Source: Bacteroidetes bacterium GWC2_46_850
GTDB taxonomy: Bacteria; Bacteroidota; Bacteroidia; Bacteroidales; Dysgonomonadaceae
Assembly: GCA_001768325.1 (NCBI GenBank)
Contig: MENQ01000004.1
Coordinates: 14,058-78,057, forward strand
Length of the DNA stretch: 64,000 bases
Direction of reading: 5' to 3'
How positions within the stretch are numbered: position 1 is the first letter of the stretch; each line of letters starts with the position of its first letter. The notes beneath the pieces are model-generated. The model did no database searches. It was given only the letters and a program-made list of their open reading frames with translations, and was not told the origin of the DNA. A program made the position numbers and the translations under genes. Positions 9,332-53,100 of the stretch are shown here, one piece after another.

Positions 9332-10045
9332 TTATACATTTACACCAAAAAGATAGCCCACAAGAGCAGATAATCCCATTGCCACGGTACCCCATATCAC
9401 AATCCGGAACACACCCTTCATGATCTGAGAACCTCCTGTTTTGGCAGATACCGCTCCCAGTACGGCAAGCGCTACAATTGTAAAGGCGTACAGAGAGTAA
9501 ACCATATTGGATATAGGGGTAAACAATACAACCAATAGAGGCAGTATTCCTCCTACGAGAAAAGAGGCACAGGAAGCCAGGGCAGCCTGAACAGGATTGG
9601 CCTGGCTCATTTCGTTGATGCCCAGTTCGTCTCTCACATGAGCGCTCAGCGCATCTTTTTCCGTCAATTCTTTGGCAACCAACATGGCTGTTTCTTTTTG
9701 TAGGCCGCGGCGCTCATATATTTCCGATAAAATCTTCAATTCTACATCGGGCATAGCTTCTAATTCCTGCCTCTCTCTTTCGATATCCGATTTTTCGATA
9801 TCCGTTTGTGAACTGACTGATACATACTCACCGGCAGCCATTGAAATTGCACCGGCAACCAAACCGGCGACAGTCGCCAGTAAGATAGGAGCTCTTTCTG
9901 AATTTGCAGCTGCCACACCAATGGCAAGACTTGAAATTGAAATTATTCCGTCATTTGCACCTAACACTGAAGCCCTAAGCCAGTTACTGCGACCTATGAA
10001 ATGGTTGTCTAAATAGTTGTCAATGGTAATTGATTTACTTCTCAT
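9332..10045 (-). CDS. VIT1/CCC1-family iron/manganese transporter
   Basis: 237 aa with NWLRASVLGANDGIISISSLAIGVAAA, an acidic central helix region and C-terminal transmembrane helices. Confidence 0.85.
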   Translation of the reverse strand: MRSKSITIDNYLDNHFIGRSNWLRASVLGANDGIISISSLAIGVAAANSERAPILLATVAGLVAGAISMAAGEYVSVSSQTDIEKSDIERERQELEAMPDVELKILSEIYERRGLQKETAMLVAKELTEKDALSAHVRDELGINEMSQANPVQAALASCASFLVGGILPLLVVLFTPISNMVYSLYAFTIVALAVLGAVSAKTGGSQIMKGVFRIVIWGTVAMGLSALVGYLFGVNV

Positions 10046-10096: not shown

Positions 10097-10753
10097 TTAT
10101 AACGGAATCAGGTATGCCGCGTAGATATGGCATGCCAATCCCAGCAGTACGAAGATATGAAAAATGGCATGGACAAACTCCCGCCTGGCTGTAGCATAGA
10201 TTACAGCACCGGCAATATAGAAAACTCCGCCTGCAATCAGCCAGATTACCGTATCCATGGTATCCTGTGCCCGAGCAACCCCAATCAATGGCTTAAAGGC
10301 GATCAGCACAATCAGTCCCATCAGAACATATGAGGAAGTCTTCAGATGGCTGTTTCGCTTCAGTGGGCGGAAGCTGATGATGATTCCGACGAGTGCGATG
10401 AACCAGACCAGCATAAAAATAAACCACCCCCAGAAAGGAATATCGCGTAACAGGATGAGCGTGAAGGGAGAATAGCTGGCTGCAATGAGCAGGTAGATGC
10501 TTGCGTGGTCGAAATGGCGTAGCTTTGACTTAAGCATTGGCTCCTGCACATAATGATAGACTGTGGATGAGCTCATGCATGCGATCATCCCGAAACCAAA
10601 AAGAGCATACCCCAGCAGGGCAGTGTCGTTGTCCGTCGCCAACGCACGGCTTAGCAGCAGCACCGTCGCTGCTACGCTCATCAGCGCGCCAAAACCGTGA
10701 GTCAGGTAGTTGATGCGCTCCTCACGCGATGTATAGAATTTATTTTTTGACAT
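10097..10753 (-). CDS. hemolysin III / PAQR-family membrane protein
   Basis: 218 aa with 7 transmembrane segments, an N-terminal SREERINYLTHGFG motif and C-terminal HxxxH-like histidines (HAIFHIFV). Its start codon overlaps the stop of the upstream anti-sigma gene (TAATG). Confidence 0.85.
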   Translation of the reverse strand: MSKNKFYTSREERINYLTHGFGALMSVAATVLLLSRALATDNDTALLGYALFGFGMIACMSSSTVYHYVQEPMLKSKLRHFDHASIYLLIAASYSPFTLILLRDIPFWGWFIFMLVWFIALVGIIISFRPLKRNSHLKTSSYVLMGLIVLIAFKPLIGVARAQDTMDTVIWLIAGGVFYIAGAVIYATARREFVHAIFHIFVLLGLACHIYAAYLIPL

Positions 10754-11919
10754 TACAATTCAATTTTCAACGTTACTTTCCGGTTTCCTTCCGACCATGG
10801 CGGCGAACCGAGTAGCAACCTTTTGATTTCAGTCTCCATTGCAGGACAGGAGTTCTCTTTAATTTGCACATTTAGCGGATGTCCATCGCTGTCAATGAAA
10901 AACGTTACAATAAATGATACAGGTTGTTCTTTGCAGATTTTTTCATCATAATTTTCCCTGAAATAACCGATAAATTCTTCTTTGTCGAAAACAGCTCGGT
11001 TTGTATTTGTTGTCGTGGAATCAACATTTTCGTGGGAACCTGTTTTCTCAGTAGAACCTATTCCTGTAACGGAACCCACTACGCTGCTCTTTTTCTGAGT
11101 TCCGAAACCCACAACAATCACTTCATTCAGTGCCATATCATCGGATTTCAGTGTAATATCACCCATATTTTCCTTCACCGGAATTTCCTGCGGTTTCATT
11201 CCAATAAATGAAGCCAACAGCGTAGAATCTGCATTGGCAGGGATATTTAAGTTGAATTTACCGTCCATATCAGACACTGTACCCAGATTGCTGTTCCTCA
11301 ATTGAATAGTGGCTCCGATAATCGGTTCACCTGTCTCGTCCACCACACGTCCGCTCGCCAGCAATGCCATGTCTGTCTCCTTCAAACCTTCGGGAATCGA
11401 TTTCTCTGTCACATTCTGCGATACTGCTGCCATCTGTACTTTCTCGTTCACGATGATCTGCATGACCGTATCGTCCGAAACGATCCTTTCTTTCCTGGCG
11501 GCCGACGGAAGAACAACGGGAGGCTGTTGTACGGGATTCTTCTCCACGACACCCGGATCTTTTGGTGCGGCAGTAGGAGTAACCTCTTTCACCTGTGGAT
11601 TATTTCCGGTTGTTGCAACCACAATTTCCTCTTTCGCTCCGGGGGAAAGCAGCAAAAGGGGAATCCCGACAAGAAGTATCAACACCGCTGCGGCACCCCA
11701 TATCCAGAGAGATTTGTGAATCCGTTTTTGGTTTGGCTGAACACTTTTTTCCAGCTTTTCAATGACAGAAGAGTGATCACCCTCCACCGAATCATAACCA
11801 TCGATGGCGTCACGCAGGAAAGGATCGTCCATCGTCTGACGTTCCAGTCGGTTGGCTTTCTTTCCGTGTCTTTGTCCCTGTATATACTCTTTCAAGCTTT
11901 CCTCTTCTGTCCTGTTCAT
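10753..11919 (-). CDS. putative ECF anti-sigma factor: cytoplasmic N-domain, 1 TM, SusC-type N-terminal-extension-like domain, TonB-box-like strand, TonB-C-like domain
   Basis: 388 aa. Its ATG overlaps the sigma factor stop (ATGA). It has an N-terminal DDPFLRDAIDGY motif and one transmembrane segment (LWIWGAAAVLILLVGIPLLLL). Residues ~188-262 (GRVVDETGEPIIGATIQLRNSNLGTVSDMDGKF...) resemble the carboxypeptidase-regulatory-like domain. NEVIVVGFGTQKK follows. The C-terminal ~75 aa (FIGYF...VSFIVTFFIDSDGHPLNVQI...PPWSEG...) show a TonB C-terminal-like pattern. Confidence 0.6.
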   Translation of the reverse strand: MNRTEEESLKEYIQGQRHGKKANRLERQTMDDPFLRDAIDGYDSVEGDHSSVIEKLEKSVQPNQKRIHKSLWIWGAAAVLILLVGIPLLLLSPGAKEEIVVATTGNNPQVKEVTPTAAPKDPGVVEKNPVQQPPVVLPSAARKERIVSDDTVMQIIVNEKVQMAAVSQNVTEKSIPEGLKETDMALLASGRVVDETGEPIIGATIQLRNSNLGTVSDMDGKFNLNIPANADSTLLASFIGMKPQEIPVKENMGDITLKSDDMALNEVIVVGFGTQKKSSVVGSVTGIGSTEKTGSHENVDSTTTNTNRAVFDKEEFIGYFRENYDEKICKEQPVSFIVTFFIDSDGHPLNVQIKENSCPAMETEIKRLLLGSPPWSEGNRKVTLKIEL

Positions 11920-12533
11920 TGCTTCGGTGCATATACGTGATGTAATTCGTCCCGGTCAGGTAGAGTTTTCAATATCCGGCTGACACAATTTTTCAAATTC
12001 CTTTTCCCGTTCTGAATGTAACTTTTTACTTTTGCAAGTGTGAACCCCGTCAAAGAAACAATGTCAGCGTATGATTTATCCTGATAGTAAAAATACTCGA
12101 TACTTTTCCGTTGTTCCACACTCAGCTCATTCATACAAACGATCAATGCCGATGCCTCTTCTTCGTTAGATTGACCGCTATCCAATAGAGTAAAAAAACT
12201 GCCGTTTTCCATAATATCCTCTCCACATAAAACAAAGAAAGTCTTGTTTTCTTTTTTTATACGCTGCAGGCAATGGTTTTTGGCAACGGTATAGAGCCAT
12301 GTATGAAAATTTTGTATCTCGTATTGTTTTATCTTTTGCGAAACTTCTTCGAACAAATCCATTACTGCATCTTCTGCATCAGCCCTGTTGGCAAGGTATT
12401 TCAGACACAATCCGTATACCATTGGAATATAGCGCCGGTATAACTCGCCGAAGAAGACCATCTGTTTTTCCTTTTTACAAAGTTCAAACAATGCGTTATC
12501 CGATAATTTTGATATGTCGGGTTTGTTAATCAA
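11916..12533 (-). CDS. RNA polymerase ECF-type sigma-70 factor
   Basis: 205 aa with region 2 (FGELYRRYIPMVYGLCLKYL...DAEDAVMDLF...HTWLYTVAKN) and region 4 (LSVEQRKSIEYFYYQDKSYADIVSLTGFTLAKVKSYIQNGKRNLK). The most upstream start is a TTG, so the exact start is uncertain. Confidence 0.85.
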   Translation of the reverse strand: MINKPDISKLSDNALFELCKKEKQMVFFGELYRRYIPMVYGLCLKYLANRADAEDAVMDLFEEVSQKIKQYEIQNFHTWLYTVAKNHCLQRIKKENKTFFVLCGEDIMENGSFFTLLDSGQSNEEEASALIVCMNELSVEQRKSIEYFYYQDKSYADIVSLTGFTLAKVKSYIQNGKRNLKNCVSRILKTLPDRDELHHVYAPKQ

Positions 12534-12656
12534 TCTGTTGCGCGAATATACTGGTAATCTCGTCTTACAAAATTAAAAAATTATTCGTTTGCTTATGGAA
12601 TTTGGGTTGTTTTTGTATCTATCATACAAAACATCATAATATAAAAAATAAATCGT

Positions 12657-14501
12657 ATGAAAACAACAATGCAAAGAGTCAGTCTATTTTTGATTACGAT
12701 GCTGCTGACAGTATCCGTTTATGGACAGCAGATTGAAGTGAGCGGAAAGGTATTTAATGAAGAGAAGCAGCCGATCATCGGTGCGACCATCATGAATAAA
12801 GTTACCCGCGACGGAACAGTCAGCGATATAGACGGAAAATTTCGTATCAAAACGAAGATTGGAGATACACTGGTCTTTATGTTTATCGGATATATGGCCC
12901 GTGAAATCGAAGTGAACAAAGCACAGCTTGATGTCTATATGAAGCCCGACCTTCGGTTGATGGAGGAGGTCACAGTGGTGGCCTTTGGAAATCAGAAACG
13001 GGCAAATGTCGTGGGTGCCGCCACTCAACGGGTAATCACAGTAAATGATTGGTCACACAGGCTGCCAATGCAACCTCAAAATTCAGAGGAGTACGAACCA
13101 TTCAGAGAAAATCGTTTTTTTTCAGTAAATAAAAATCCATTGTCCACCTTTTCGCTGGATGTGGATGCGGCGTCTTACGGTAACATTCGCCGGATGATTA
13201 ACCAGGGACAAATGCCAGAAAAAGATGCTGTGCGGGTGGAGGAGATGATCAATTATTTTAACTACGATTATCCACAGCCGAAGGATGGTCAACCGGTAAG
13301 TATCGTAGCCGAAACCGCCGGATGCCCCTGGAACCGGAATACACAGCTGGTACGCATTGGCATAAAGACAAAGGAGATCCCTTCGGAAATGCTTCCGGCA
13401 GGAAATTTTGTTTTCCTGATTGATGTGTCCGGGTCAATGATGGATGCCAATAAGCTCCCTTTGGTTAAAGCATCTATGAAGCTCCTGGTGAACAACCTGC
13501 GACCGAAAGACCGTGTGGCAATCGTCACCTATGCCGGTGCAGCGGGTGAAGTATTGCCTTCGACAAGCGGCGCCGACAAGCAAAAGATAACGGAAGCGCT
13601 GGATAATCTCCAGGCCGGAGGTACCACTGCGGGTGGTGCCGGCATCCAGCTGGCCTATAAAATAGCTGAAAAGAACCTGGTGAAAGGAGGCAATAACCGG
13701 GTGATTCTTTGTACTGATGGCGATTTTAATGTGGGTGTTTCCTCAACCGAAGGACTCGAGTCGTTGATTGAGCAAAAGCGTCAGTCGGGCATTTACTTGA
13801 CTGTGCTGGGTTATGGAATGGGAAATTACAAGGACAACAAACTACAGACGCTCGCACAAAAGGGCAATGGGAATCATGCCTATATCGATAACCTGCAGGA
13901 AGCCAATAAAGTGTTGGTTAACGAGTTTGGCAGTACGATGGCTGTCGTGGCCAAGGATGTAAAGCTCCAGGTGGAGTTCAATCCAATTTTTGTGAATGCC
14001 TACCGTTTGATTGGCTATGAATCGCGATTGCTGGAAGATGAAGATTTCAACGACGACACCAAGGATGCTGGTGAGCTTGGACCCGGACATACCGTTACGG
14101 CGCTTTATGAAATTGTTCCAGTGGGAGTTGATATTCCTGTTGGAAAAGTGGATCCATTGAAATATCAGCAACAGAAAACCGAACGTTTACCGTCCAAATT
14201 CAGCAATACCAAAGAGTTGTTAACCGTGAAGCTGCGCTATAAAAAGCCAGGTGAAGACATAAGCAGGAAGCTCGAGGTGCCCGTGCCTGCTTCGAAAACG
14301 AATCGGATGGCATCACCTGACTTCAATTTTGTGATGGCTGTCGCCATGTTCGGGCAGTTGCTGCGTGATTCAGATTATAAAGGAGACGGCACTTACAAGG
14401 ATGTGGTCGAGCTGGCCCTTAAGGGACTGGATAACGATCCCCATGGTTACCGACGCGAATTTATCCGTTTGGTGGAAGCGGTTCAACAACTGGAGATGTG
14501 A
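12657..14501 (+). CDS. secreted von Willebrand factor type A protein (YfbK-like) with SusC-type N-terminal module
   Basis: 614 aa with a signal peptide (LLTVSVYG/QQ). Residues ~26-120 form a CarboxypepD_reg-like domain followed by EEVTVVAFGNQKR. Next comes the vWA N-terminal region (PLSTFSLDVDAASYGN). The MIDAS motif is present (FLIDVSGSM ... GGTTAGGAG ... CTDGDFNVG). The C-terminus is DUF3520-like. Confidence 0.85.
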   Translation: MKTTMQRVSLFLITMLLTVSVYGQQIEVSGKVFNEEKQPIIGATIMNKVTRDGTVSDIDGKFRIKTKIGDTLVFMFIGYMAREIEVNKAQLDVYMKPDLRLMEEVTVVAFGNQKRANVVGAATQRVITVNDWSHRLPMQPQNSEEYEPFRENRFFSVNKNPLSTFSLDVDAASYGNIRRMINQGQMPEKDAVRVEEMINYFNYDYPQPKDGQPVSIVAETAGCPWNRNTQLVRIGIKTKEIPSEMLPAGNFVFLIDVSGSMMDANKLPLVKASMKLLVNNLRPKDRVAIVTYAGAAGEVLPSTSGADKQKITEALDNLQAGGTTAGGAGIQLAYKIAEKNLVKGGNNRVILCTDGDFNVGVSSTEGLESLIEQKRQSGIYLTVLGYGMGNYKDNKLQTLAQKGNGNHAYIDNLQEANKVLVNEFGSTMAVVAKDVKLQVEFNPIFVNAYRLIGYESRLLEDEDFNDDTKDAGELGPGHTVTALYEIVPVGVDIPVGKVDPLKYQQQKTERLPSKFSNTKELLTVKLRYKKPGEDISRKLEVPVPASKTNRMASPDFNFVMAVAMFGQLLRDSDYKGDGTYKDVVELALKGLDNDPHGYRREFIRLVEAVQQLEM

Positions 14502-14555: not shown

Positions 14556-16043
14556 ATGAGAGGTGATGTAATGTGGTACAGGATTATACTGGTCAAGCTT
14601 TTGTTACTGACAGTCCTGCATATTACCGGCATAAAAGCACAGCAAACAGAGCACAGGGTGACAGGTACGGTGATGGACCAGTCGGGTGAGACGTTTCCGG
14701 GTACGACGGTTATTGTGAAAGGAACTGTACAGGGGACCGTGACTGATATGGATGGAAGGTACGTTATTGCCGTACCAAAAGATGCTATTCTTCAATTTTC
14801 TTTCGTTGGCATGGAGAACCGGGAAATTGCAGTTGAGGGCCGCCAGAGGATCGACGTGGTGATGGAAGACAACATTTCAGAAGGAATAATGCCTGCGAAA
14901 CCGATCCTGTTGACTCCGAAGCAGCGCGAGAAGGCAGAGGCCGACAACAGGTTTTCGTTTAACGTTTTCTTGGAAATCTCAAGGTTGCAAGGACCCAATG
15001 CATTTTTTTCTCCTATAAGTCTTAATATGGCTCTCGGGACTCTCTACAACGGTTCTTCGGGTGATACCCGTACAGAAATGAACCAGATTTGGGGTATCAC
15101 TAACTTTTCAGAATCCGAACTTAACGACTATTATCGAACCATAAACCGGAGATTATTGGAAGCAGATCGGTTCACGGATATTGCTATCGCCAATTCCATC
15201 TGGTATCGTAGTGATTTTTCAATCAAAGAAGCGTTTAAAGAAACCAGTAAGAGATATTTTGATACGGATATAAAAGCGCTCGATTTCAATGATTCCAATG
15301 CGGCCAATGTTATCAACAAATGGTGCCTTGATAAAACAAATGGCAAGATCAATCATATTGCTGCCACTCCGATGCCAGGAGATATGATGATGTATCTGGC
15401 AAATGCCATCTATTTCAAGAGTAAATGGCAGATGGAGAAAAGGTTCAGGAAAGAGCAAACAAAACCGGACGATTTTATTCAGTCCGACGGCAAAACATTG
15501 AGGGTGGAGATGATGGAACAAACCACCTCCCTGCCTTATTATAGCGACTCATATCTTCAATGTGTTGAATTACCATATGGGAACGGAGCGTACAGCATGA
15601 TGGCAGTTCTTCCACCCGACAATGAAAATATCAGTCAACTGATTGAATACCTGAGTAGTGCTCATTGGGAGCGTATTGTCAATCAGATGAAGAGTGAACG
15701 AGTATGGTTGAAATTACCCCGTTTAAGGATAGAATGCAATATACCTTTCAATCAGCCATTGAAAAATGTGGGGATGCAAAAAATTTTCAGCGGAGGTTTC
15801 GCACATCTTTCAGATGATGCTTTCAATGTCTCCAATATTAGACAGAAAGCATTTATAGAAGTGAATGAAGAGGGTACAGAGGTTGCCGCTGTTACATCCA
15901 TGATGATAGTGGGTTACGGAGTTATGAAGACATCGAATGAACCCGTCCACTTTTTTGCCAATCGCCCGTTTATGCTGCTGATCAGGGAGAAAAGTACAGG
16001 GGTAATACTCTTTATTGGCAGAATTGATGATCCCCGCAGTTAA
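14556..16043 (+). CDS. secreted serpin with N-terminal CarboxypepD_reg-like domain
   Basis: 495 aa with a signal peptide (ITGIKA/QQ). Residues ~34-104 read VTGTVMDQSGETFPGTTVIVKGTVQGTVTDMDGRY... The serpin core carries the canonical hinge and reactive-centre loop, FIEVNEEGTEVAAVTS...PVHFFANRPFMLLIRE. Confidence 0.85.
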   Translation: MRGDVMWYRIILVKLLLLTVLHITGIKAQQTEHRVTGTVMDQSGETFPGTTVIVKGTVQGTVTDMDGRYVIAVPKDAILQFSFVGMENREIAVEGRQRIDVVMEDNISEGIMPAKPILLTPKQREKAEADNRFSFNVFLEISRLQGPNAFFSPISLNMALGTLYNGSSGDTRTEMNQIWGITNFSESELNDYYRTINRRLLEADRFTDIAIANSIWYRSDFSIKEAFKETSKRYFDTDIKALDFNDSNAANVINKWCLDKTNGKINHIAATPMPGDMMMYLANAIYFKSKWQMEKRFRKEQTKPDDFIQSDGKTLRVEMMEQTTSLPYYSDSYLQCVELPYGNGAYSMMAVLPPDNENISQLIEYLSSAHWERIVNQMKSERVWLKLPRLRIECNIPFNQPLKNVGMQKIFSGGFAHLSDDAFNVSNIRQKAFIEVNEEGTEVAAVTSMMIVGYGVMKTSNEPVHFFANRPFMLLIREKSTGVILFIGRIDDPRS

Positions 16044-16297: not shown

Positions 16298-18886
16298 ATG
16301 AATTTCAATAACTTTACCATCAAGGCGCAGGAAGCGGTACAGAAGGCCATTGAGATTGCGCAGGGAAATAAGCAGCAGATGATTGAGCCGGCTCACCTGT
16401 TGAAAGGGGTGATGCAGGTGGGCGAGAACGTGACCAGCTTCCTGTTTCAGAAGCTGGGTGTAAATGCATCGAATCTGGAAAAGGTGGTCGACGGCGAAAT
16501 CGAATCCTATCCACGTGTGTCGGGCGGTGAACCTATGCTGAGCAGGGAGACCAATGCCGTTTTCCAAAAAGCAACGGATCTTACCGGTAAGATGGGCGAT
16601 CAGTTTGTCTCCATCGAACATCTGCTGTTGGCCCTGGTGCAGGAGAACAACAATGCTTCCCGCATGATGCGCGATGCCGGTATCACACCGGCTGAGCTGC
16701 AAAAGGCCATCGATGAACTGCGAAAAGGGGAGAAGGTGACCAGTCAGACGGCGGAAGATACCTACCAGGCACTGGGCAAGTACGCTGTAAATCTGATTGA
16801 GCGTGCCCGCAGCGGCAAACTGGATCCGGTCATCGGTCGCGACGAGGAGATACGCCGCGTATTGCAGATACTGAGCCGGCGCACGAAAAACAACCCGATC
16901 CTGATCGGAGAACCGGGAACCGGTAAGACCGCCATCGCCGAAGGACTGGCACACCGCATCGTGCGGGGTGACGTGCCGGAGAACCTGCGCAGCAAACAGC
17001 TTTTTTCACTCGACATGGGTGCGCTGATTGCCGGAGCCAAATACAAAGGTGAATTTGAGGAACGACTGAAATCGGTGGTCAACGAAGTGGTAAAGGCGGA
17101 GGGAGAGATCATCCTCTTCATCGACGAGATTCATACGCTGGTGGGCGCCGGCAAGAGCGAGGGTGCAATGGATGCTGCCAACATCCTGAAACCAGCCCTG
17201 GCAAGGGGTGAACTGCGTGCCATCGGGGCGACCACACTCGATGAATACCAGAAGTATTTTGAAAAGGATAAAGCGCTGGAAAGACGATTTCAGATGGTGA
17301 TGGTGGAGGAACCCAATGAGTCGGACAGCATCTCCATCCTGCGTGGACTGAAAGAACGGTACGAGAATCACCACAAGGTGCGCATCATGGATGAGGCGAT
17401 CATCGCGGCGGTGCAGCTGTCGCATCGATACATCACTGATCGGTTTCTGCCCGATAAGGCCATCGACCTGATGGATGAGGCTGCTGCCAAGTTGCGTATG
17501 GAGGTAGACTCTGTTCCGGAGGAGCTGGATGAGATCATGCGGCGCGTGAAGCAGCTTGAGATTGAGCGGGAGGCCATAAAACGTGAGAATGACCAGCCGA
17601 AAGTGGAGCTGCTGACCCGTCAGATTGAGGACCTGAAAGCGGAGGAGGCCGACTACAAGGCAAAGTGGCAATCGGAGAAGGAGTTGATCAACCAGATTCA
17701 GCAAAATAAAATAGAGATAGAGGACGCGAAGTTCGAAGCGGACCGGGCCGAACGGGAGGGCGACTACGGAAAGGTGGCCGAACTACGTTACGGCAGGATC
17801 AAAGAGATGGAGAACACGATTGAGGCGCTGCAGAAGGAGTTGCATGTGCGTCAGGGTACCCGCGCCATGATCAAGGAGGAGGTGGATGCTGAGGATATTG
17901 CCGATGTGGTGTCACGCTGGACTGGTATTCCTGTGAGCAAGATGCTCCAGAGCGAGCGGCAGAAGTTGCTTCATCTGGAGGAGGAACTGCACAAGCGCGT
18001 AGTCGGACAGGATGAGGCCATCACGGCAGTCTCCGACGCGGTGAGGCGCAACCGGGCGGGATTGAGTGACCCGAAGCGGCCGATTGGTTCTTTTATCTTT
18101 CTGGGTACCACGGGTGTCGGAAAGACCGAACTGGCCAAAGCCCTTGCGGAGTACCTGTTTGATGATGAAAATATGATGACCCGCATCGACATGAGCGAGT
18201 ATCAGGAAAAGTTCAGTGCCACCCGACTGATTGGCGCCCCTCCGGGATATGTGGGGTACGATGAGGGAGGTCAGCTTACAGAGGCAATACGGCGCAAACC
18301 CTATTCGGTGGTACTGTTCGACGAGATTGAAAAAGCACATCCCGATGTGTTCAACATCCTGCTGCAGGTGCTGGACGACGGAAGGCTGACCGATAACAAG
18401 GGAAGGGTGGTGAACTTCAAGAATACAATCATCATCATGACCTCAAACCTGGGATCGAACATGATTCGGGAGAACTTTGAAAAAATTACACCCACGAACA
18501 GGGAAGAAATCATTGAGAAAACGAAGAACCTGGTGATGGATATGTTGAAAAAGACGATCCGCCCTGAGTTTCTGAACCGGATAGACGACATCATCATGTT
18601 TTCTCCGCTGAAAGAATCGGAGATTGAACAGATCGTCCGCATACAACTTGAGGGTGTACGGAAGATGCTGGCTGAAAACGGCATCGAACTGCAATTTACG
18701 GAAGAAGCATTGAAGAGCATTTCGGTGGCAGGTTTTGATCCCGAGTTTGGGGCTCGTCCCGTGAAGCGGGTTATTCAGAATAAGGTGCTGAACCAGTTGT
18801 CGAAAGATCTGCTCGGAGGTACGCTCGATAAAACAAGACCGATCTCCATCGATGCGATCGACGACACCATCTTCTTTCGCAACTGA
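16298..18886 (+). CDS. clpB: ATP-dependent chaperone ClpB
   Basis: 862 aa with two AAA+ modules ([15 protein letters not shown] and [15 protein letters not shown]), a long coiled-coil middle domain and a Clp N-domain. Confidence 0.97.
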
Positions 18887-46712: not shown

Positions 46713-49700
46713 ATGACAGATCAAATAACAGGAATAAAAAACAGAGAGCCAAATAGCATGCCGAACGTCAGGAAGGTACTTCTTTTGGGATCAGGTGCTC
46801 TCAAGATCGGCGAGGCTGGAGAGTTCGATTATTCCGGTTCTCAGGCATTGAAAGCACTGCGCGAGGAGGGAGCAGAGACGATCCTGATCAACCCGAATAT
46901 CGCCACGGTGCAAACCTCCGAAGGGGTAGCCGATAAAATATACTTTCTGCCGGTCACTCCCTATTTCGTGGAGAAGGTGATTGCCCGTGAACGGCCCGAC
47001 GGCATCATGCTCGCCTTTGGCGGACAGACGGCATTAAACTGTGGGGTTGCTCTTTATCAGTCGGGTGTGTTTGAAAAATATAACCTGCAGGTGTTGGGAA
47101 CACCCGTGCAGGCGATCATGGATACCGAAGACCGGGAGCTGTTTGTGAAGAAACTCGATCAGATCGACGTAAAGACCATCCAAAGCTTTGCCGTCTCTAC
47201 CCTTGACGATGCGTTACAGGCTGCCGGCAGGTTGGGTTACCCCATCATCGTGCGGGCTGCCTATGCACTGGGCGGACTCGGGTCGGGTTTCTGTAACGAT
47301 GAATCGGAGCTGCAAACGCTCGCAGGTAAGGCTTTTAACTACTCAGACCAGCTGTTGATTGAAAAGTCGTTGAAAGGTTGGAAGGAGATTGAATATGAGG
47401 TGGTGCGTGACCGGTACGACAACTGTATCACGGTCTGTAACATGGAAAACTTCGATCCGCTGGGTATCCATACCGGAGAGAGCATTGTGGTGGCTCCCTC
47501 GCAGACGCTCACCAACTCGGAATATCACAAGCTGCGAGAGCTGGCCATTCAGATTGTCCGTCACATCGGTATCGTGGGTGAGTGTAACGTACAGTATGCT
47601 TTTGACCCGGAGTCGGAAGATTACCGCGTGATAGAGGTGAATGCCCGCCTGAGCCGTTCTTCGGCACTGGCTTCCAAGGCAACCGGATATCCATTGGCCT
47701 TTGTCGCGGCCAAACTCGGATTGGGATACGGACTCTTCGACCTGAAAAATTCGGTTACAAAATCGACCAGCGCCTTCTTTGAGCCGGCGCTCGACTATAT
47801 CGTGGTGAAGATACCCCGATGGGATCTGGGTAAGTTCAGCGGCGTCTCCAAAGAGATCGGTTCCAGCATGAAGTCGGTCGGTGAGATCATGGCCATCGGC
47901 CGCACCTTTGAAGAGGCCATCCAAAAAGGGCTTCGCATGATCGGACTGGGCATGCATGGCTTCGTGGAGAACAAGGAACTTATCATCGATGACATCGACA
48001 AAGCACTCAGGGAGCCGACAGATCAGCGCATTTTCGTAATCAGCAAGGCTTTCCGCAAAGGATATACGGTGGATCAGATTCATGAACTGACAAAGATAGA
48101 CCGCTGGTTTCTTCATAAACTCTACCGGATTGTGCTGACCGCCGAAACACTGGAAGGATACACACCTTCTTCGTTAGATTTTGAAAAAAACGGGAATAGC
48201 GGTTTTGACGAAATACTGAAGAGAGCCAAGCAACAGGGTTTCTCTGATTTTCAGATTGCCAGGGCCCTCTGGAAAGATCAGGTAGACGATGCGGCACCGG
48301 CAATCATTCGCACTTACAGAAAGAAAAGGGGGATACGGCCGGTGGTAAAACAGATCGACACGCTGGCAGCAGAATATCCCGCACAGACAAACTATCTTTA
48401 TCTCACCTATAACGGGTCGGAGAACGACGTGCAGTACCTGGGCGACCACCGCTCGGTGATCGTACTGGGGTCGGGAGCTTACCGCATCGGCTCGTCGGTG
48501 GAGTTCGACTGGTGTTCGGTAAATGCACTGAACACGGTTCGCAAAGAAGGATATCGTTCGGTAATGATCAACTACAACCCGGAGACGGTGTCGACTGATT
48601 ATGATATGTGCGACCGGCTCTACTTCGATGAGCTGACGTACGAGCGGGTGATGGACATCATTGAACTGGAGAACCCGCATGGCGTAATTGTCTCCGTGGG
48701 GGGGCAGATACCCAACAACCTGGCTGTGAGGTTGGATGAGTCTGGAGTAAATATACTGGGGACATCTGCCAAAAGCATTGATAATGCCGAGGACCGGCAT
48801 AAGTTTTCCTCCATGCTTGACAGGCTGGGAATAGACCAGCCGAGATGGAGGGAGCTGACCACACTCGGTGAAATTCATCATTTCGCCAATGAGGTGGGTT
48901 TTCCGCTACTGGTAAGACCTTCCTACGTGCTCTCCGGAGCAGCAATGAACGTCTGTTCAAACAATAGTGAACTGGAACGTTTCCTGACTCTTGCCACCGA
49001 GGTTTCAAGCAGGTATCCGGTGGTCGTCTCCGAATTTATTGAAGAATCAAAGGAAATTGAGATGGATGCCGTCGCACAGAACGGAGAGCTGGTGGCATAT
49101 GCCATATCGGAGCATGTGGAATTCGCGGGAGTACACTCCGGCGATGCCACCATTCTGTTTCCTGCTCAGAAAATTTATGTGCAGACCGCCCGCAGAATTA
49201 AGCAGATCACACGGCAGATCGCCAAAGCATTGAATATTACAGGTCCGTTCAACATTCAGTTCCTGGCAAAAGACAATGACATCAAGGTGATAGAATGTAA
49301 CCTGAGAGCATCGAGATCATTTCCATTCGTGTCTAAAATACTGAAAATAAATTTTATAGAGCTCGCAGCAAAAGTGATGCTTGAAGTTCCGGTTGAAAAA
49401 CCTGAAAAATCGGCGTTCGAGCTCGACTATGTGGGAATAAAAGCATCGCAGTTTTCCTTCACCAGGCTGCAGAAGGCCGATCCGGTGCTGGGCGTGGATA
49501 TGGCTTCTACCGGTGAGGTGGGTGCCATTGGGAACCATTTCGACGATGCTTTACTCACGTCGATGCTGGCAGTGGGCTATCGCGTCCCCGAAAAAAACAT
49601 CATGATATCCTCCGGCGGAACGAAATCGAAGGTAGACCTGCTCGATCCGTGCCGGCTTTTGCAGAAAAACGGATATGCATTGTATGCCACTGGCGGGACA

Positions 49701-49997
49701 CAAAAGTTTCTGGAAGAAAACGGCGTGAACAGTACCTTTGTGGCATGGCCCGATGATGAGCATGCCACGCTGAAGGTAAACGACATGATTGCAGAAAGAA
49801 AATTCGACCTGATTATCAACATCCCGAAGAATCTGACAGAGCGGGAGCTGACCAACGGTTACCGGATTCGTCGTGGTGCCATCGATTACAACATCCCGCT
49901 CATCACCAATGCCCGGTTGGCAAGCGCTTTCATCAAAGCCTTCTGCAGGATCACACGCGATGACATAGAGATTAAACATTGGGAAGAATATAATTAA
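46713..49997 (+). CDS. carB: carbamoyl-phosphate synthase large subunit, paralog 1
   Basis: 1094 aa with two ATP-grasp halves, an oligomerisation domain and an MGS-like allosteric domain. It has a 15-aa N-terminal extension relative to paralog 2. The alternative start ATG 46758 (MPNVRKVLLLGSG) may be the real one. Confidence 0.93.
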   Translation: MTDQITGIKNREPNSMPNVRKVLLLGSGALKIGEAGEFDYSGSQALKALREEGAETILINPNIATVQTSEGVADKIYFLPVTPYFVEKVIARERPDGIMLAFGGQTALNCGVALYQSGVFEKYNLQVLGTPVQAIMDTEDRELFVKKLDQIDVKTIQSFAVSTLDDALQAAGRLGYPIIVRAAYALGGLGSGFCNDESELQTLAGKAFNYSDQLLIEKSLKGWKEIEYEVVRDRYDNCITVCNMENFDPLGIHTGESIVVAPSQTLTNSEYHKLRELAIQIVRHIGIVGECNVQYAFDPESEDYRVIEVNARLSRSSALASKATGYPLAFVAAKLGLGYGLFDLKNSVTKSTSAFFEPALDYIVVKIPRWDLGKFSGVSKEIGSSMKSVGEIMAIGRTFEEAIQKGLRMIGLGMHGFVENKELIIDDIDKALREPTDQRIFVISKAFRKGYTVDQIHELTKIDRWFLHKLYRIVLTAETLEGYTPSSLDFEKNGNSGFDEILKRAKQQGFSDFQIARALWKDQVDDAAPAIIRTYRKKRGIRPVVKQIDTLAAEYPAQTNYLYLTYNGSENDVQYLGDHRSVIVLGSGAYRIGSSVEFDWCSVNALNTVRKEGYRSVMINYNPETVSTDYDMCDRLYFDELTYERVMDIIELENPHGVIVSVGGQIPNNLAVRLDESGVNILGTSAKSIDNAEDRHKFSSMLDRLGIDQPRWRELTTLGEIHHFANEVGFPLLVRPSYVLSGAAMNVCSNNSELERFLTLATEVSSRYPVVVSEFIEESKEIEMDAVAQNGELVAYAISEHVEFAGVHSGDATILFPAQKIYVQTARRIKQITRQIAKALNITGPFNIQFLAKDNDIKVIECNLRASRSFPFVSKILKINFIELAAKVMLEVPVEKPEKSAFELDYVGIKASQFSFTRLQKADPVLGVDMASTGEVGAIGNHFDDALLTSMLAVGYRVPEKNIMISSGGTKSKVDLLDPCRLLQKNGYALYATGGTQKFLEENGVNSTFVAWPDDEHATLKVNDMIAERKFDLIINIPKNLTERELTNGYRIRRGAIDYNIPLITNARLASAFIKAFCRITRDDIEIKHWEEYN

Positions 49998-50064: not shown

Positions 50065-50104
50065 ATTGGCATATTAGCATATTATCACATCAACAAATCA
50101 ATAA
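50065..50104 (+). repeat. five tandem degenerate octamers directly abutting the carB paralog 2 start codon
   Basis: ATTGGCAT ATTAGCAT ATTATCAC ATCAACAA ATCAATAA, where the last A is the A of ATG 50104. A further ATTAGCA sits at 50054..50060. Confidence 0.6.
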
Positions 50105-53100
50105 TGGATCAGTCAATCAAGAAAGTTATTTTACTGGGTTCCGGCGCCCTGAAGATCGGACAGGCGGGAGAATTTGATTATTCCGGTTCACAAGCGCTGA
50201 AAGCAATGCGGGAAGAGGGAATAGAAACCGTACTCATCAACCCGAATATTGCTACGATACAAACATCGGAGGGGGTGGCCGACAAGGTTTATTTCCTACC
50301 GATCACGCCGTACTTCGTGGAAAAGGTGATTCAAAAAGAAAAACCGGATGGTATCCTGCTCGCCTTTGGCGGTCAGACAGCGCTGAACTGCGGAACAGAA
50401 CTGTACCAAAGCGGCACGCTGGAGAAGTATGGCGTAAAGGTACTGGGGACTTCTGTGGAAGCCATCATGATCACGGAGGACCGTGACCTGTTCGTGAAGA
50501 AACTGAATGAGATTGATGCAAAGACGCCGCAATCTCATGCGGTAGAATCGCTGGAAGACGCATTGGTTGCGGCTCGCGAGATAGGTTTTCCCATCATGGT
50601 ACGCTCTGCCTACGCACTGGGGGGACAAGGTTCGGGCATCTGTGAAAATGAGACTGAATTCATTGAACTCTGCAAAAGTGCCCTCTCCTTTTCAAGCCAG
50701 ATCCTGGTGGAGGAGAGCCTCAAGGGATGGAAGGAGATTGAGTTTGAGGTGATCCGCGACAAAAACGACCACTGCTTCACGGTGGTGCCGATGGAGAACT
50801 TCGATCCGCTGGGCATTCATACAGGCGAGAGCATCGTGGTGGCACCCATCATCACGCTCACAAAAGAGCAGATATCCCTGCTGGAGGATATCGCCGGAAA
50901 GGTTGTTCGCCACATAGGCATCGTGGGTGAGTGTAACATACAATATGCCTTCAATGCAGCAACCAACGACTACCGGATCATCGAGATCAATGCCCGTCTG
51001 AGTCGTTCCTCGGCACTGGCCTCCAAGGCATCGGGCTATCCGCTCGCCTTCGTGGCTACCAAGCTGGCGTTGGGTTATACCCTCGACCAGATCGGTGAAC
51101 TGGGAACGCCCAACTCGGCCTATATAGCACCTGTGGTGGACTACATGATTGTAAAGATACCGCGTTGGGATCTGAATAAATTCTATGGCGTGAGCCACGA
51201 AATCGGCTCCTCCATGAAGTCGGTGGGTGAGATCATGTCAATTGGTCAGTCGTTCGAAGAGATCATTCAGAAAGGTTTGCGCATGATCGGACAGGGAATG
51301 CACGGCTTTGTGGGCAACAGGGAGATCATCTTCGAGCATGTGGAAGAGTCGCTAGCAAAACCGACCGACCTCCGCATCTTCGCCATTGCCGATGCGTTCG
51401 AAAAAGGATACAGCGTGGCTCAGATAGGGGAACTCACAAAAATTGATCCCTGGTTTCTGGGAAAGCTGGAAAATATATACAATTATTCAAAGGTACTCGC
51501 TGATTACAATAAAATAGAAGAGTTACCCGGGGAAGTGCTCAAAGAGGCCAAAAGGCTGGGTTTCTCCGATTTCCAGATCGCACGTTTTGTGGAAGAACCG
51601 GTCGGCACGGTGGAAAATGAGCTGATCAGGGTAAGAAACCACCGGAAAAAGATGGGGATTAGGCCGATAGTACGCCGGATCAACACCGTGGCTTCGGAGC
51701 ATCCCGAAAAAACAAACTACCTCTATTTCACCTACGGATCGGAGAAAGCCTATACGCCACATAAGGAGGACAAAGAGCCGGTTGTTGTGCTGGGATCGGG
51801 TGCCTACCGCATCGGCTCGTCGGTTGAGTTCGACTGGTGTTCGGTAAATGCGGTGCAGACCGCACGCGACCTGGGATACGCCTCGGTGATGATCAACTAC
51901 AATCCCGAAACGGTGTCGACCGACTATGATATGTGCGACCGCCTTTATTTTGACGAACTCACTTTTGAACGGGTGATGGATGTCATCGACATCGAAGAGC
52001 CCAAGGGTGTCATCGTCTCCGTTGGGGGGCAGATACCCAATAATCTGGCAATGAAGCTTCACCGCCAGCAGGTGCCCATACTGGGAACTTCGCCTCTCTC
52101 CATCGACCGCGCCGAAAACAGGCACAAGTTCTCGGCCATGCTCGATGAGCTGGGTATCGACCAGCCACGCTGGACAGAGGCCGGCAGCATTGCGGAGATC
52201 GATGCGTTTATCAATGAAGTGGGCTTCCCCTTGCTGATCCGTCCCTCCTATGTACTCTCCGGCGCTGCCATGAATGTGTGTTACGACCGGGAGCAGATGC
52301 AAGTCTTTCTGAAGATGGCGGTCAACGTGTCGAAGGAATATCCCGTGGTGGTCTCCAGCTTCATGCAGAATGCCAAGGAAATCGAGTTTGATGCAGTGGC
52401 CAGGAATGGGGAAGTGGTGGAATATGCCATCTCCGAACATGTGGAGTTTGCCGGGGTGCACTCAGGCGATGCCACACTGGTATTCCCTGCGCAAAAGATC
52501 TATTTCGAGACCATGCGCCGTGTGAAGAAGATCTCGAAGCAGATTGCCCGCGAGCTGAAAATAAGCGGCCCCTTCAACATTCAGTACCTGGCCAAGAACA
52601 ACGACATCAAGGTGATTGAATGCAACCTGCGGGCATCCCGCTCTTTCCCGTTTGTATCGAAGGTGCTGAAACACAACTTTATTGAGACCGCCACCCGCGT
52701 CATGCTGGATGCACCTTACACAAAGCCGGACAGCTCGGTATTCGACCTGGATTACATCGGAGTAAAAGCATCGCAGTTTTCTTTCTCCCGCCTGCAGAAT
52801 ACCGATCCGGTGCTGGGCGTGGATATGTCATCCACTGGTGAGGTGGGCTGCATTGGTGAAGACTTTTCGGATGCCATCCTCAAGTCGATGCTCTCCGTGG
52901 GATATAAAATACCGAAAAAGGGTATTCTGATCTCTTCGGGAGAGATGAAGTCGAAGGTCGATCTGCTGGAAGCCTGCAAGCTGCTGGGCGAGAAAGGGTA
53001 TGATCTGTATGCCAGTCATGGTACCTGCAGGTTTTTGGAAGACAATGGAATCAAAGCCACCGATGTGAACTGGCCCGATGAGGATGGGAAAAACAACATC

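Follow-up and report, generated by a model that had tools for sequence, protein, structure and literature searches.

A TonB box together with a TonB_C-family domain in the periplasmic chain of a putative Bacteroidota anti-sigma factor

How might an ECF sigma factor be controlled when its putative anti-sigma factor is built, on the periplasmic side, from parts of the TonB system? To our knowledge, the input mechanisms of most ECF sigma/anti-sigma pairs of the Bacteroidota are not known, and the one role in which we know strand pairing between a TonB box and a TonB C-terminal (TonB_C) domain is in nutrient import, where this contact transmits force. ECF pairs are the most abundant regulators in this phylum, with about 22 per genome (PMC7826278). 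The locus that raises the question lies in the 64-kb stretch of DNA analysed here (the window). In it, both halves of the best-known periplasmic β-augmentation pair, the TonB box and the TonB_C domain, sit inside one signalling protein, which is linked to a conserved vWA/YfbK_C partner bearing the same box. A search of the literature for an anti-sigma factor with a SusC-type NTE, a box and a TonB_C domain found nothing specific, and the combination of box and TonB_C domain in one sigma regulator looks like an undescribed mode of control, the mechanism of which is putative.

The open reading frame on the minus strand encodes 388 residues and reproduces exactly the protein quoted in the preliminary description, whose positions 10756-11358 correspond to residues 188-388 and span the NTE, the box and the C-terminal domain (C-domain). 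From N to C terminus, the chain comprises a helical region, one transmembrane helix, a disordered linker of ~95 residues and three periplasmic elements, namely a SusC-type NTE, a TonB box and a TonB_C-family domain (Table 1). The structural claims made earlier for these three elements were all borne out by profile searches and by AF2 models compared with Foldseek. The same architecture of NTE, box and TonB_C domain extends from Dysgonomonadaceae (Proteiniphilum, Petrimonas) to Ferruginibacter (Chitinophagales), and occurs in other distant lineages as well. Among the strains that possess the locus are Proteiniphilum acetatigenes DSM 18083 and Petrimonas sulfuriphila DSM 16547.

Table 1. Features of the locus, with positions counted from the first letter of the window
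Feature	Residues	Positions	Strand	Basis
Putative anti-sigma factor gene, 388 aa	1-388	10753..11919 (including stop codon)	-	ORF read from sequence
N-terminal helical region, predicted cytoplasmic	1-65	11725..11919	-	AF2 helices, motif conservation
Transmembrane helix LWIWGAAAVLILLVGIPLLLL	71-91	11647..11709	-	sequence; AF2 helix 69-89
Disordered periplasmic linker	93-185	11365..11643	-	pLDDT <50 over 100-181 (AF2)
SusC-type NTE domain	186-262	11134..11364	-	PF13715 E 5e-19; Foldseek
TonB box LNEVIVVGFGTQKK	264-277	11089..11130	-	TIGR04056 match, conservation
Variable disordered linker from box to C-domain	278-309	10993..11088	-	pLDDT <50 (AF2)
TonB_C-family domain	310-388	10756..10992	-	profiles, AF2, Foldseek
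ECF sigma factor gene		11916..12533	-	Pfam, TIGR02937
TAATTTTG, upstream of sigma operon		12568..12575	-	conserved block AAATTAAAAAATTATTCG
ECF-like promoter motif TGGAAT-N12-TGTATC, upstream of vWA gene		12596..12619	+	conserved intergenic motif
vWA/YfbK_C partner gene		12657..14501	+	Pfam, TIGR04056
TonB box of vWA partner, LMEEVTVVAFGNQKR	101-115	12957-13001	+	TIGR04056
Serpin gene, N-terminal NTE, no TonB box		14556..16043	+	Serpin 4e-98, CarbopepD_reg_2 4e-14

The upstream neighbour encodes an ECF sigma factor, as judged by Sigma70_r2 (E 1e-15) and Sigma70_r4_2 (E 8e-10) in Pfam and by 73.8 bits against TIGR02937 (sigma70-ECF; cut-off 42.9). Its stop codon overlaps the start codon of the anti-sigma candidate in an ATGA at 11916-11919, and wherever a related locus extends far enough upstream (34 loci), the gene directly before the anti-sigma gene encodes a sigma factor. 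Having an adjoining, co-transcribed sigma gene and a single-pass, N-in topology, which is indicated by the KRIHK preceding the transmembrane helix, the candidate has the general properties of an ECF anti-sigma factor. A recognisable anti-sigma domain was not found in its N terminus: neither an anti-sigma model (for example zf-HC2/RskA-type class I ASD) nor any other Pfam model matched this region, and its family profile retrieved no anti-sigma structure from the PDB. Residues 1-65, which are presumed to be the sigma-binding domain, form four helices in the AF2 model (H3-13, H20-30, H33-44 and H49-60) and conserve the motifs Y12, G15, E26, DPFL and DA..G. The N-terminal profile mostly matched proteins or fragments of 90-180 residues without Pfam domains, some of them on long contigs, which shows that short anti-sigma-like proteins contain the module as well. 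We base the name anti-sigma factor on gene context and topology, and it is, like the sigma binding that it implies, putative.

The linker that follows the membrane helix differs in sequence and length among homologues. It had been described as containing a TonB-like Pro/Val-rich spacer, and such a stretch does exist (KDPGVVEKNPVQQPPVVLPS, residues 120-139), but it falls outside the positions given in that description and lacks the (EP)n/(KP)n repeats of TonB.

Residues 189-269 match CarbopepD_reg_2 in Pfam, and the SusC/RagA model TIGR04056 aligns over its positions 4-112 with residues 189-297 (E 9e-36), the part that holds NTE and TonB box in this order. The best PDB match of the NTE in Foldseek is 9hfj, the NTE of the SusC protein BT3090 (42% identity, TM 0.85, E 2.5e-8), and the second is 6ytc, the NTE of BT1763. 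Judged by these matches, the segment is a genuine SusC-type NTE with its TonB box, in agreement with the earlier proposal of a SusC-type N-terminal domain followed by a box strand. The SusC/RagA proteins Bt1763 and BT3090 share the NTE in fold and sequence and likewise have an EVVVxGxG box directly after it; unlike them, the anti-sigma candidate has neither a plug nor a 22-strand barrel. It reaches 123.6 bits against TIGR04056, well short of the cut-off of 368.25 for a full-length SusC/RagA protein, Pfam finds no Plug or TonB_dep_Rec match in it, and the chain stops at residue 388. The NTE and box are thus internal to an inner-membrane protein, whereas in SusC they form the mature N terminus of an outer-membrane protein. 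In Bt1763, the counterpart of LNEVIVVGFGTQKK (VDEVVV/DEVVVTG) has been shown by experiment to be required for transport (PMC7782687). Across 78 family members, conservation is 90% or higher at the box positions L264, E266, V269 and G273, and the conservation of the box core L-x-E-V-V-V at this level across classes, within a segment predicted to be disordered, argues for a function in binding.

The C-domain has ~80 residues and a conserved Cys pair. The expectation that it would score with TonB_C models held for the family, in which 15 of 25 C-domains match PF03544 at E <1 (best 1e-7), but not for the window's own sequence, whose C-terminal 80 residues alone give E 0.27 and 12.1 bits, below the cut-off of 24.6. 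When the family profile was run against PDB sequences, TonB C-domains made up 15 of its 20 matches; among 1.8 billion proteins it matched 30,406 representatives and recovered bona fide PF03544 proteins with E-values as low as 1e-62, the top matches being multi-copy PF03544 proteins in which Pfam itself detects TonB_C at 1e-51 to 1e-93. These top matches carry three to six TonB_C copies each, and in some the copies are fused to M56/BlaR1. AF2 models the C-domain with high confidence (pLDDT about 95) as an α-β-β-α-β fold, in which RKVTLKIEL is the last β-strand. With a separate AF2 model of residues 258-388 (131 residues) as the Foldseek query, the top 22 PDB neighbours were exclusively C-domains of TonB, HasB, FusB and TolA (E 8e-3 to 0.8, target-normalised TM up to 0.62), including 2gsk and 2grx, the complexes of TonB with BtuB and FhuA; the full-length model as query gave mainly NTE and transthyretin-like matches and no TonB. 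The fold that had been anticipated for the C terminus was thereby recovered, and from profiles and models we regard its membership of the TonB_C family as real.

The C-domain shares with those of TonB, HasB and FusB (PF03544) the α-β-β-α-β fold and, at the level of the family, sequence homology, and as in TonB it forms the C-terminal end of an inner-membrane protein with one transmembrane helix, to which a disordered linker containing proline connects it. Unlike TonB, the candidate begins with a helical, predicted cytoplasmic domain of about 65-70 residues, is translationally coupled to an ECF sigma gene and carries an NTE and a box of its own. A bona fide TonB transducer couples to ExbB/ExbD through a His/SHLS helix; the helix LWIWGAAAVLILLVGIPLLLL contains no His, no Ser and no SHLS motif.

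Divergently from the sigma operon runs the gene of the vWA/YfbK_C partner. The protein is composed of a signal peptide, an NTE, a TonB box, vWF_A, a VWA domain with a DxSxS MIDAS motif and YfbK_C, in this order (Pfam: YfbK_C 2e-70, vWF_A 1e-41, VWA 6e-22, CarbopepD_reg_2 9e-16). The second box-like strand that had been noticed in it, EEVTVVAFGNQKR, proved to be a SusC-type box, lying within a match to TIGR04056 positions 1-100 (E 2e-29). In every Dysgonomonadaceae locus with enough upstream DNA (29 of 29) the divergent vWA gene is present, forming with the sigma and anti-sigma genes a trio in which it alone lies on the opposite strand; the trio also occurs at two of four distant loci, the adjacent vWA gene being absent from the other two. 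These counts are biased towards Dysgonomonadaceae, as the related loci were found with a set of close homologues. All vWA orthologues, in 31 loci, retain signal peptide, NTE and box. The intergenic region contains TATGGAAT-N12-TTG(T/C)ATC in 27 of 29 cases, including the distant locus L002, and in the window this ECF-like promoter motif occurs only once, in front of the vWA gene. Upstream of the sigma operon, on the other strand, lies TAATTTTG, a Bacteroidota housekeeping -7 box of the TAnnTTTG type.

Two known systems help to place this trio. In FecR/FecA signalling, as in the arrangement envisaged here, the anti-sigma factor that governs an ECF sigma factor crosses the membrane once and communicates through its periplasmic part with a box-bearing protein; here, unlike there, the partner is a soluble vWA/YfbK_C protein and the TonB-like domain is within the anti-sigma factor itself. 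Pfam gave no FecR or STN match at E up to 1 in the candidate or its neighbours, which sets the system apart from the classical FecR/SusC route; together with the lack of TBDT genes in related loci, this upholds the earlier view that the system differs from it. The second system is ECF289 (Casas-Pastor et al. 2021, PMC7826278), in which vWA and DUF3520 (=YfbK_C) belong to the same chain as the anti-sigma factor. The same vWA/YfbK_C module is there tied to an ECF sigma/anti-sigma pair, and by the Rosetta-stone argument this fusion suggests that anti-sigma factor and vWA/YfbK_C protein act as a unit. Unlike in ECF289, the vWA/YfbK_C protein of our locus is separate and secreted; NTE and box are present in both proteins, and the anti-sigma factor has a TonB_C domain in addition. 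By analogy, the set of NTE, box and TonB_C looks like a non-covalent docking device that may replace the ECF289-type fusion.

We propose that the locus encodes a Bacteroidota-specific ECF sigma/anti-sigma module whose sensing would rely on elements taken over from the TonB system. The cytoplasmic N terminus of the anti-sigma factor would hold the sigma factor, which probably drives the divergent vWA/YfbK_C gene, the product of which would be periplasmic and present NTE and box at its mature N terminus. The TonB_C-like domain may bind a TonB box by β-strand augmentation in the manner of TonB, with two alternative ligands for the one site, the box within the anti-sigma factor and the box of the vWA protein; the candidate peptides for the C-domain (residues 305-388) are ALNEVIVVGFGTQKKS and LMEEVTVVAFGNQKRA. 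Box occupancy, which would be set by the amount of vWA protein and the ligand state of its MIDAS site, would alter the anti-sigma factor in its conformation or in its exposure to proteases, and would thereby set the level of free sigma factor. The vWA/YfbK_C protein would then be a detachable sensor subunit that feeds back on its own expression. A partner switch or auto-inhibition through pairing of box and C-domain is plausible. We lean, tentatively and with something less than even confidence, towards a sensing module in which own box and vWA box compete for the TonB_C-like domain, with putative contacts, sigma binding and direction of regulation. A self-contained periplasmic partner switch, in which the C-domain would pick either its own box (the closed state) or the vWA box and so set sigma activity, is a more far-reaching reading, and a doubtful one. 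The conserved vWA partner, the ECF-like promoter in front of its gene and the likeness kept between the two boxes speak for the switch. Against it count the undocked box in the models, the lack of covariation, the signs of gene conversion, the modest identity of the window's own boxes, the two distant loci without the vWA gene and an N terminus unlike known anti-sigma domains. Binding in cis would be sterically possible, since in all members the conserved box Gly and the first C-domain helix are at least 18 residues apart (about 18 to 80 among homologues); in the full-length and the 131-residue AF2 models the box is disordered and undocked (pLDDT <50), which we count as a weak negative.

Between the two boxes of one genome (cognate pairs), identity is 0.557 vs 0.422 in non-cognate pairs, a value reached by none of 10000 permutations, whereas the NTE bodies show hardly any excess (0.335 vs 0.321). 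An AF/GY dipeptide is the same in both boxes in 22 of 28 genomes, and the tree shows at least four switches of its state, which run parallel in the two proteins. Evolution of the boxes is concerted. Micro gene conversion explains part of this similarity: in 5 of 28 genomes, identical stretches of 20-39 nt fall precisely on the box, the non-cognate maximum being 20 nt. The window's own boxes have 44% identity and an identical run of 7 nt. Such conversion tracts suit an account that we consider unlikely, in which the periplasmic elements are reused scaffolding without any pairing of box and TonB_C domain; the NTE and TonB_C-like domains would bind peptidoglycan, an outer-membrane component or another ligand, and the likeness of the boxes would be a by-product of conversion. 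The undocked box in the AF2 models fits this account, as does the spread of its parts, for TonB_C-like domains are very common and often repeated in Bacteroidota proteins, as the number of representatives above illustrates, and an NTE is also found in unrelated proteins such as the box-less serpin of this locus. It does not readily explain why the box core is so conserved across classes despite its predicted disorder, nor why the boxes of locus L001 are alike in protein while differing at many synonymous positions, a pattern that points to selection and not to recent conversion.

No C-domain column covaries with box state above the noise of linker columns, and the C-domain is nearly invariant in Dysgonomonadaceae, whereas the boxes vary. 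This would suit an alternative that seems to us somewhat unlikely, in which both boxes are handles for the cell's TonB-ExbBD: pulling would unfold the anti-sigma factor or make it accessible to site-1/site-2 proteolysis, releasing the sigma factor, and the TonB_C-like domain would be a decoy or competitor that tunes TonB access. NTE and box faithfully copy the N terminus of SusC, a proven TonB client, and an undocked box is what AF2 should return if its partner is another protein. The NTE has moreover been proposed to confer specificity for TonB paralogues (PMC7782687), and vWA proteins tethered to the inner membrane have been proposed as force transducers (PMC12204202). How pulling could generate force is hard to see, however, since the inner membrane anchors TonB as well as the anti-sigma factor; no tonB/exbBD gene was found at the locus and no further TonB_C-like domain in the window; and a housekeeping TonB with many different SusC boxes to serve should not keep just these two matched to each other genome by genome.

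A further comparison concerns the Dma anti-sigma factors of the Bacteroidota, which are similar in layout: a short region at the N terminus for binding the sigma factor is followed by a single transmembrane helix and a long disordered periplasmic linker that leads to a C-terminal module. In Dma this module is an 8-strand outer-membrane β-barrel, where here it is NTE, TonB box and TonB_C; Pfam finds no OMP_b-brl_2 barrel in the candidate, which is not of the Dma type. Dma factors bridge both membranes by their disordered linker (PMC10927553), and the ~95-residue linker of our candidate is long enough to span the periplasm. With its confirmed TonB_C fold, the C-domain might then reach the outer membrane, bind the boxes of substrate-loaded SusC/TBDT proteins and report their occupancy or the state of the envelope, with the internal NTE and box as an auto-inhibitory pseudo-substrate and the vWA protein as a mere member of the regulon. 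The two lineages that have the architecture without an adjacent vWA gene agree with this scheme. We nevertheless hold it to be distinctly unlikely: neither the window nor the related loci have a TBDT gene linked to the system, and the scheme does not account for the NTE and box that every vWA protein retains, or for boxes that evolve in concert.

Should the pairing of box and C-domain be real, it would amount to a new signalling logic made of transport parts, and it would suggest a possible role for thousands of orphan TonB_C-like domains in the Bacteroidota, including those in BlaR1/M56 fusions. The NTE of SusC is essential in Bt1763, with no function assigned to it (PMC7782687). A real pairing would offer a small soluble system, an 80-residue domain and peptides, in which the role of the SusC NTE could be studied; if the partner switch is true, the NTE would for the first time be given a defined role, that of a module making box recognition specific.

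Within the window, NTE domains occur in three proteins only, the anti-sigma candidate, the vWA protein and the serpin. Two ORFs of 1,070-1,094 residues that were suspected to encode SusC are carbamoyl-phosphate synthase paralogues instead. The serpin gene is probably co-transcribed with the vWA gene, and its NTE match covers positions 2-75 of the HMM only. Found in only three related loci, the serpin is an accessory gene outside the core of the system.

The putative anti-sigma factor is encoded by an open reading frame whose ATG shares bases, in an ATGA motif, with the stop codon of the upstream ECF sigma gene. Its database name is only 'carboxypeptidase-like regulatory domain-containing protein', and the span 10756–11358 treated in the preliminary description corresponds to residues 188–388. 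The closest relatives carry the labels Proteiniphilum, Petrimonas or Dysgonamonadaceae, and one related locus, L005 of the MAG 'Porphyromonadaceae bacterium bin.24', is 99% identical. The KRIHK sequence ahead of the transmembrane helix and the acidic residues behind it indicate a predicted N-in topology. The Pro/Val-rich spacer reported to follow this helix is present at residues 120–139, inside the first disordered linker.

Features of the anti-sigma locus and its surroundings (window positions, or residues of the anti-sigma factor)
Feature	Location	Strand	Description
VIT1-family gene	9332-10045	-	iron/manganese transporter-like
HlyIII-family gene	10097-10753	-	membrane protein
Anti-sigma factor gene	10753-11919	-	388-aa ORF
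ECF sigma gene	11916-12533	-	Sigma70_r2, Sigma70_r4_2 and TIGR02937 matches above cut-off
TATGGAAT-N12-TTG(T/C)ATC motif, window copy	12596-12619		single occurrence in 64 kb
vWA protein gene, window copy	12657-14501		box reads LMEEVTVVAFGNQKR
Serpin gene	14556-16043	+	Pfam E 4e-98; N-terminal SusC-type NTE, without box
ClpB-type disaggregase gene	16298-18886	+	AAA_2, Clp_N, ClpB_D2-small
Carbamoyl-phosphate synthase large-subunit-like gene	46713-49997	+	1,094 aa
Carbamoyl-phosphate synthase large-subunit-like gene	50104-53316	+	1,070 aa
N-terminal region	residues 1-65		four short helices (AF2); conserved Y12, G15, E26, DPFL, DA..G signature
Transmembrane helix	residues 71-91		single, hydrophobic
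Linker	residues 93-185		predicted disordered, pLDDT < 50 (AF2)
CarbopepD_reg_2 domain (NTE)	residues 186-262		E 5e-19
Box, LNEVIVVGFGTQKK	residues 264-277		
Second linker	between box and C-domain		variable, disordered
C-domain	residues 310-388		compact, pLDDT ~95, alpha-beta-beta-alpha-beta (AF2)

The SusC-type N-terminal domain and box-like strand ascribed to this protein proved genuine. Residues 189–297 align to positions 4–112 of TIGR04056 (NCBIfam SusC/RagA; E 9e-36), a stretch that comprises the N-terminal extension (NTE) and the TonB box and includes neither plug nor barrel; the protein carries a SusC N-terminus but is no transporter. The best PDB structural neighbours of the full-length model are both SusC NTEs: that of BT3090, as a crystal structure (9hfj, the top neighbour; 42% identity, TM 0.85, E 2.5e-8), and that of Bt1763, solved by NMR (6ytc). 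Despite the predicted disorder of the box segment, conservation among 78 family members reaches at least 90% at L264, E266, V269 and G273. In Bt1763 the box (VDEVVV/DEVVVTG) lies right behind the NTE and is needed for growth on levan, and the NTE is essential too (PMC7782687).

We regard the fold of the C-terminal domain (C-domain) and its membership of the TonB_C family as settled. Foldseek searches with a model of residues 258–388 bore out the proposed TonB_C-like fold, returning HasB, TonB, FusB and TolA C-domains as all of the top 22 PDB matches, including the BtuB and FhuA complexes of TonB (2gsk, 2grx), with modest values (E 8e-3 to 0.8; target-normalised TM up to 0.62). The expected match to PF03544 held for 15 of 25 representative C-domains (best 1e-7), but not for the window C-domain alone (12 bits, E 0.27; cut-off 24.6); among the full-length homologues, more distant ones in other Bacteroidota (P0104–P0109, P0114) already carry a precomputed PF03544 annotation. 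When a C-domain profile was compared with PDB sequences, 15 of 20 matches were TonB C-domains from many species. The same profile found 30,406 matches (E <= 1e-3) among 1.84 billion representative proteins, the best of which have three to six tandem domains each, with Pfam TonB_C scores of 1e-51 to 1e-93, and include a fusion to a BlaR1/M56 peptidase (P0241). Such tandem arrangements, some fused to this sensor peptidase, recur in very many Bacteroidota-type proteins (P0241–P0384); TonB_C seems widespread as a signalling or sensor module, a role on which we found no study in the literature. Cysteines at residues 332 and 358 (..KIC.., ..NSCP..; DNA ~10846–10926) are invariant in 16 aligned representative Dysgonomonadaceae C-domains, and some distant members (P0103, P0115) also have Cys at similar positions. 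To our knowledge a pair of this kind is absent from canonical TonB C-domains; the two residues might form a disulfide in the periplasm or act as a redox-sensitive element.

The anti-sigma factor has a TonB_C domain but is not a TonB: no His/SHLS coupling motif occurs in its transmembrane helix, and a cytoplasmic, sigma-coupled domain forms its N-terminus. The system resembles cell-surface signalling in outline but, by the domain search, is not of the FecR/STN type, in agreement with the proposed departure from the FecR/SusC route. In the Bacteroides Dma/Reo anti-sigma factors a disordered linker spans the periplasm and a beta-barrel is present (PMC10927553); the present system has the linker in common with them but not the barrel. 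Full-text literature searches found no description of an anti-sigma factor combining NTE, TonB box and TonB_C. The structural observation is solid, and we rate the system as ECF sigma/anti-sigma signalling with a previously undescribed sensory architecture. The observation would surprise specialists in TonB or ECF systems and renders NTE function testable.

The order of parts (N-terminal motif, transmembrane helix, variable linker, NTE, box and TonB_C) is common to Proteiniphilum, Petrimonas and Fermentimonas, and extends to distant lineages including one Ferruginibacter genome (Chitinophagales). Four short proteins on long contigs (P0126, P0162, P0204 and P0216; 137–170 aa) share the N-terminal DPFL..A.EG motif and the transmembrane helix but have no periplasmic domains, and are apparently minimal forms of the same anti-sigma module, mainly from Chitinophagaceae. 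We searched the ORFs of 36 related loci with the window's proteins. The sigma gene lies immediately upstream of the anti-sigma gene in all 34 loci reaching that far, and a divergent vWA/YfbK_C gene is present in 29/29 Dysgonomonadaceae loci whose upstream DNA extends far enough, as well as in two of four distant loci (L001 and L002, not L003 and L004). The box-like strand claimed for this divergent protein is there in the window and kept in every orthologue found: all start with a signal peptide, an NTE and a box of type LEEVVVVAFGTQKK. The window protein continues with vWF_A, VWA and YfbK_C, and the DxSxS motif of its VWA domain is intact; in L029 and L036, two tandem NTE domains precede the box.

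A strongly conserved intergenic motif, TATGGAAT-N12-TTG(T/C)ATC, points to the vWA gene in 27/29 loci, distant L002 included, and in its two-block form we see a resemblance to ECF promoters, with a GGAAT-like block at -35, a spacer and a short block at -10. On the opposite strand, ahead of the sigma operon, lies a conserved TAATTTTG, a Bacteroidota housekeeping -7 box of the TAnnTTTG type. Most simply read, the sigma/anti-sigma operon would be expressed constitutively and the vWA gene would be the target of the sigma factor.

The two boxes of one genome tend to resemble one another. Box-region identity is 0.557 in cognate pairs versus 0.422 in non-cognate pairs (0/10000 label permutations reach the observed value), with nearly no excess in the NTE bodies (0.335 versus 0.321). 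On a tree of the vWA body, both proteins show parallel switches of the box dipeptide A-F/G-Y, at least four in all, and the dipeptide is identical between the two boxes in 22/28 genomes. The Ferruginibacter boxes, AVVVTAMGQVRQKSSVGYSS and SVVVTALGAVRQKAAIGYSS, are similar as protein yet carry many synonymous differences, which indicates selection. Elsewhere, identical nucleotide runs between the two neighbouring genes occur at the box codons only (39 nt in L021, 32 in L032, 26 in L033, 24 in L002 and 20 in L014; non-cognate 99th percentile 16 nt, maximum 20 nt), and codon identity at identical residues is 0.47 in the box versus 0.39; micro gene conversion therefore contributes to box similarity. 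This concerted evolution demonstrates that the two boxes are kept interchangeable, and says nothing on their binding partner. It is unlikely that the parts are reused as mere scaffolding without pairing, the likeness of the boxes stemming from gene conversion, since the L-x-E-V-V-V core is strongly conserved across classes though disordered.

We tentatively favour a partner switch, in which the C-domain would take either the internal box or that of the sigma-induced vWA/YfbK_C sensor, the choice determining how stable the anti-sigma factor is or which conformation it adopts. This proposal needs only module-encoded parts and accounts for the matching of the boxes as well as for the fusion in ECF289, whose anti-sigma factor is itself joined to a vWA and DUF3520 (=YfbK_C) domain (PMC7826278). 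That fusion speaks for joint action of anti-sigma factor and vWA/YfbK_C module as one unit, and NTE, box and TonB_C might here form a docking device in its place; the likeness of cognate boxes, the parallel dipeptide switches and the Ferruginibacter selection likewise speak for an interplay of box and C-domain. Against it, or neutral, are gene conversion, the window's own two boxes (44% identity, longest identical run 7 nt), the AF2 models, neither of which docks the low-confidence box, and the covariation check within the family, where no C-domain column tracks box state; the C-domain is nearly invariant (EIKRLLLGSPxW) and the boxes are variable. The idea that both boxes are handles for the real TonB motor agrees with how faithfully SusC is mimicked and with the absence of predicted cis docking, but seems somewhat improbable, as it leaves genome-specific box matching unexplained and gives no account of how force arises. 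Sampling of the TonB boxes of outer-membrane transporters by the C-domain is quite improbable, the locus having no linked transporter.

The serpin gene follows the vWA gene after a gap of 54 nt and, being present at this position in only three related loci (L005, L020 and L025, the last with two), is accessory; as a periplasmic protease inhibitor near the anti-sigma factor, its product might bear on regulated proteolysis. Beyond these genes lies that of a ClpB-type disaggregase, with an orthologue on the same side in ~16 related loci, which may reflect either simple synteny or a link to a stress regulon. On the other flank, the HlyIII gene begins at the final base of the anti-sigma stop codon (1-nt overlap, 10753) and is followed by the VIT1 gene; the former lies immediately 3' of the anti-sigma gene in ~20 related loci, the latter occurs in a few, and both may belong to the same operon as the anti-sigma gene. 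Further along the window, the two carbamoyl-phosphate synthase large-subunit-like genes are tandem paralogues with very similar N-termini.
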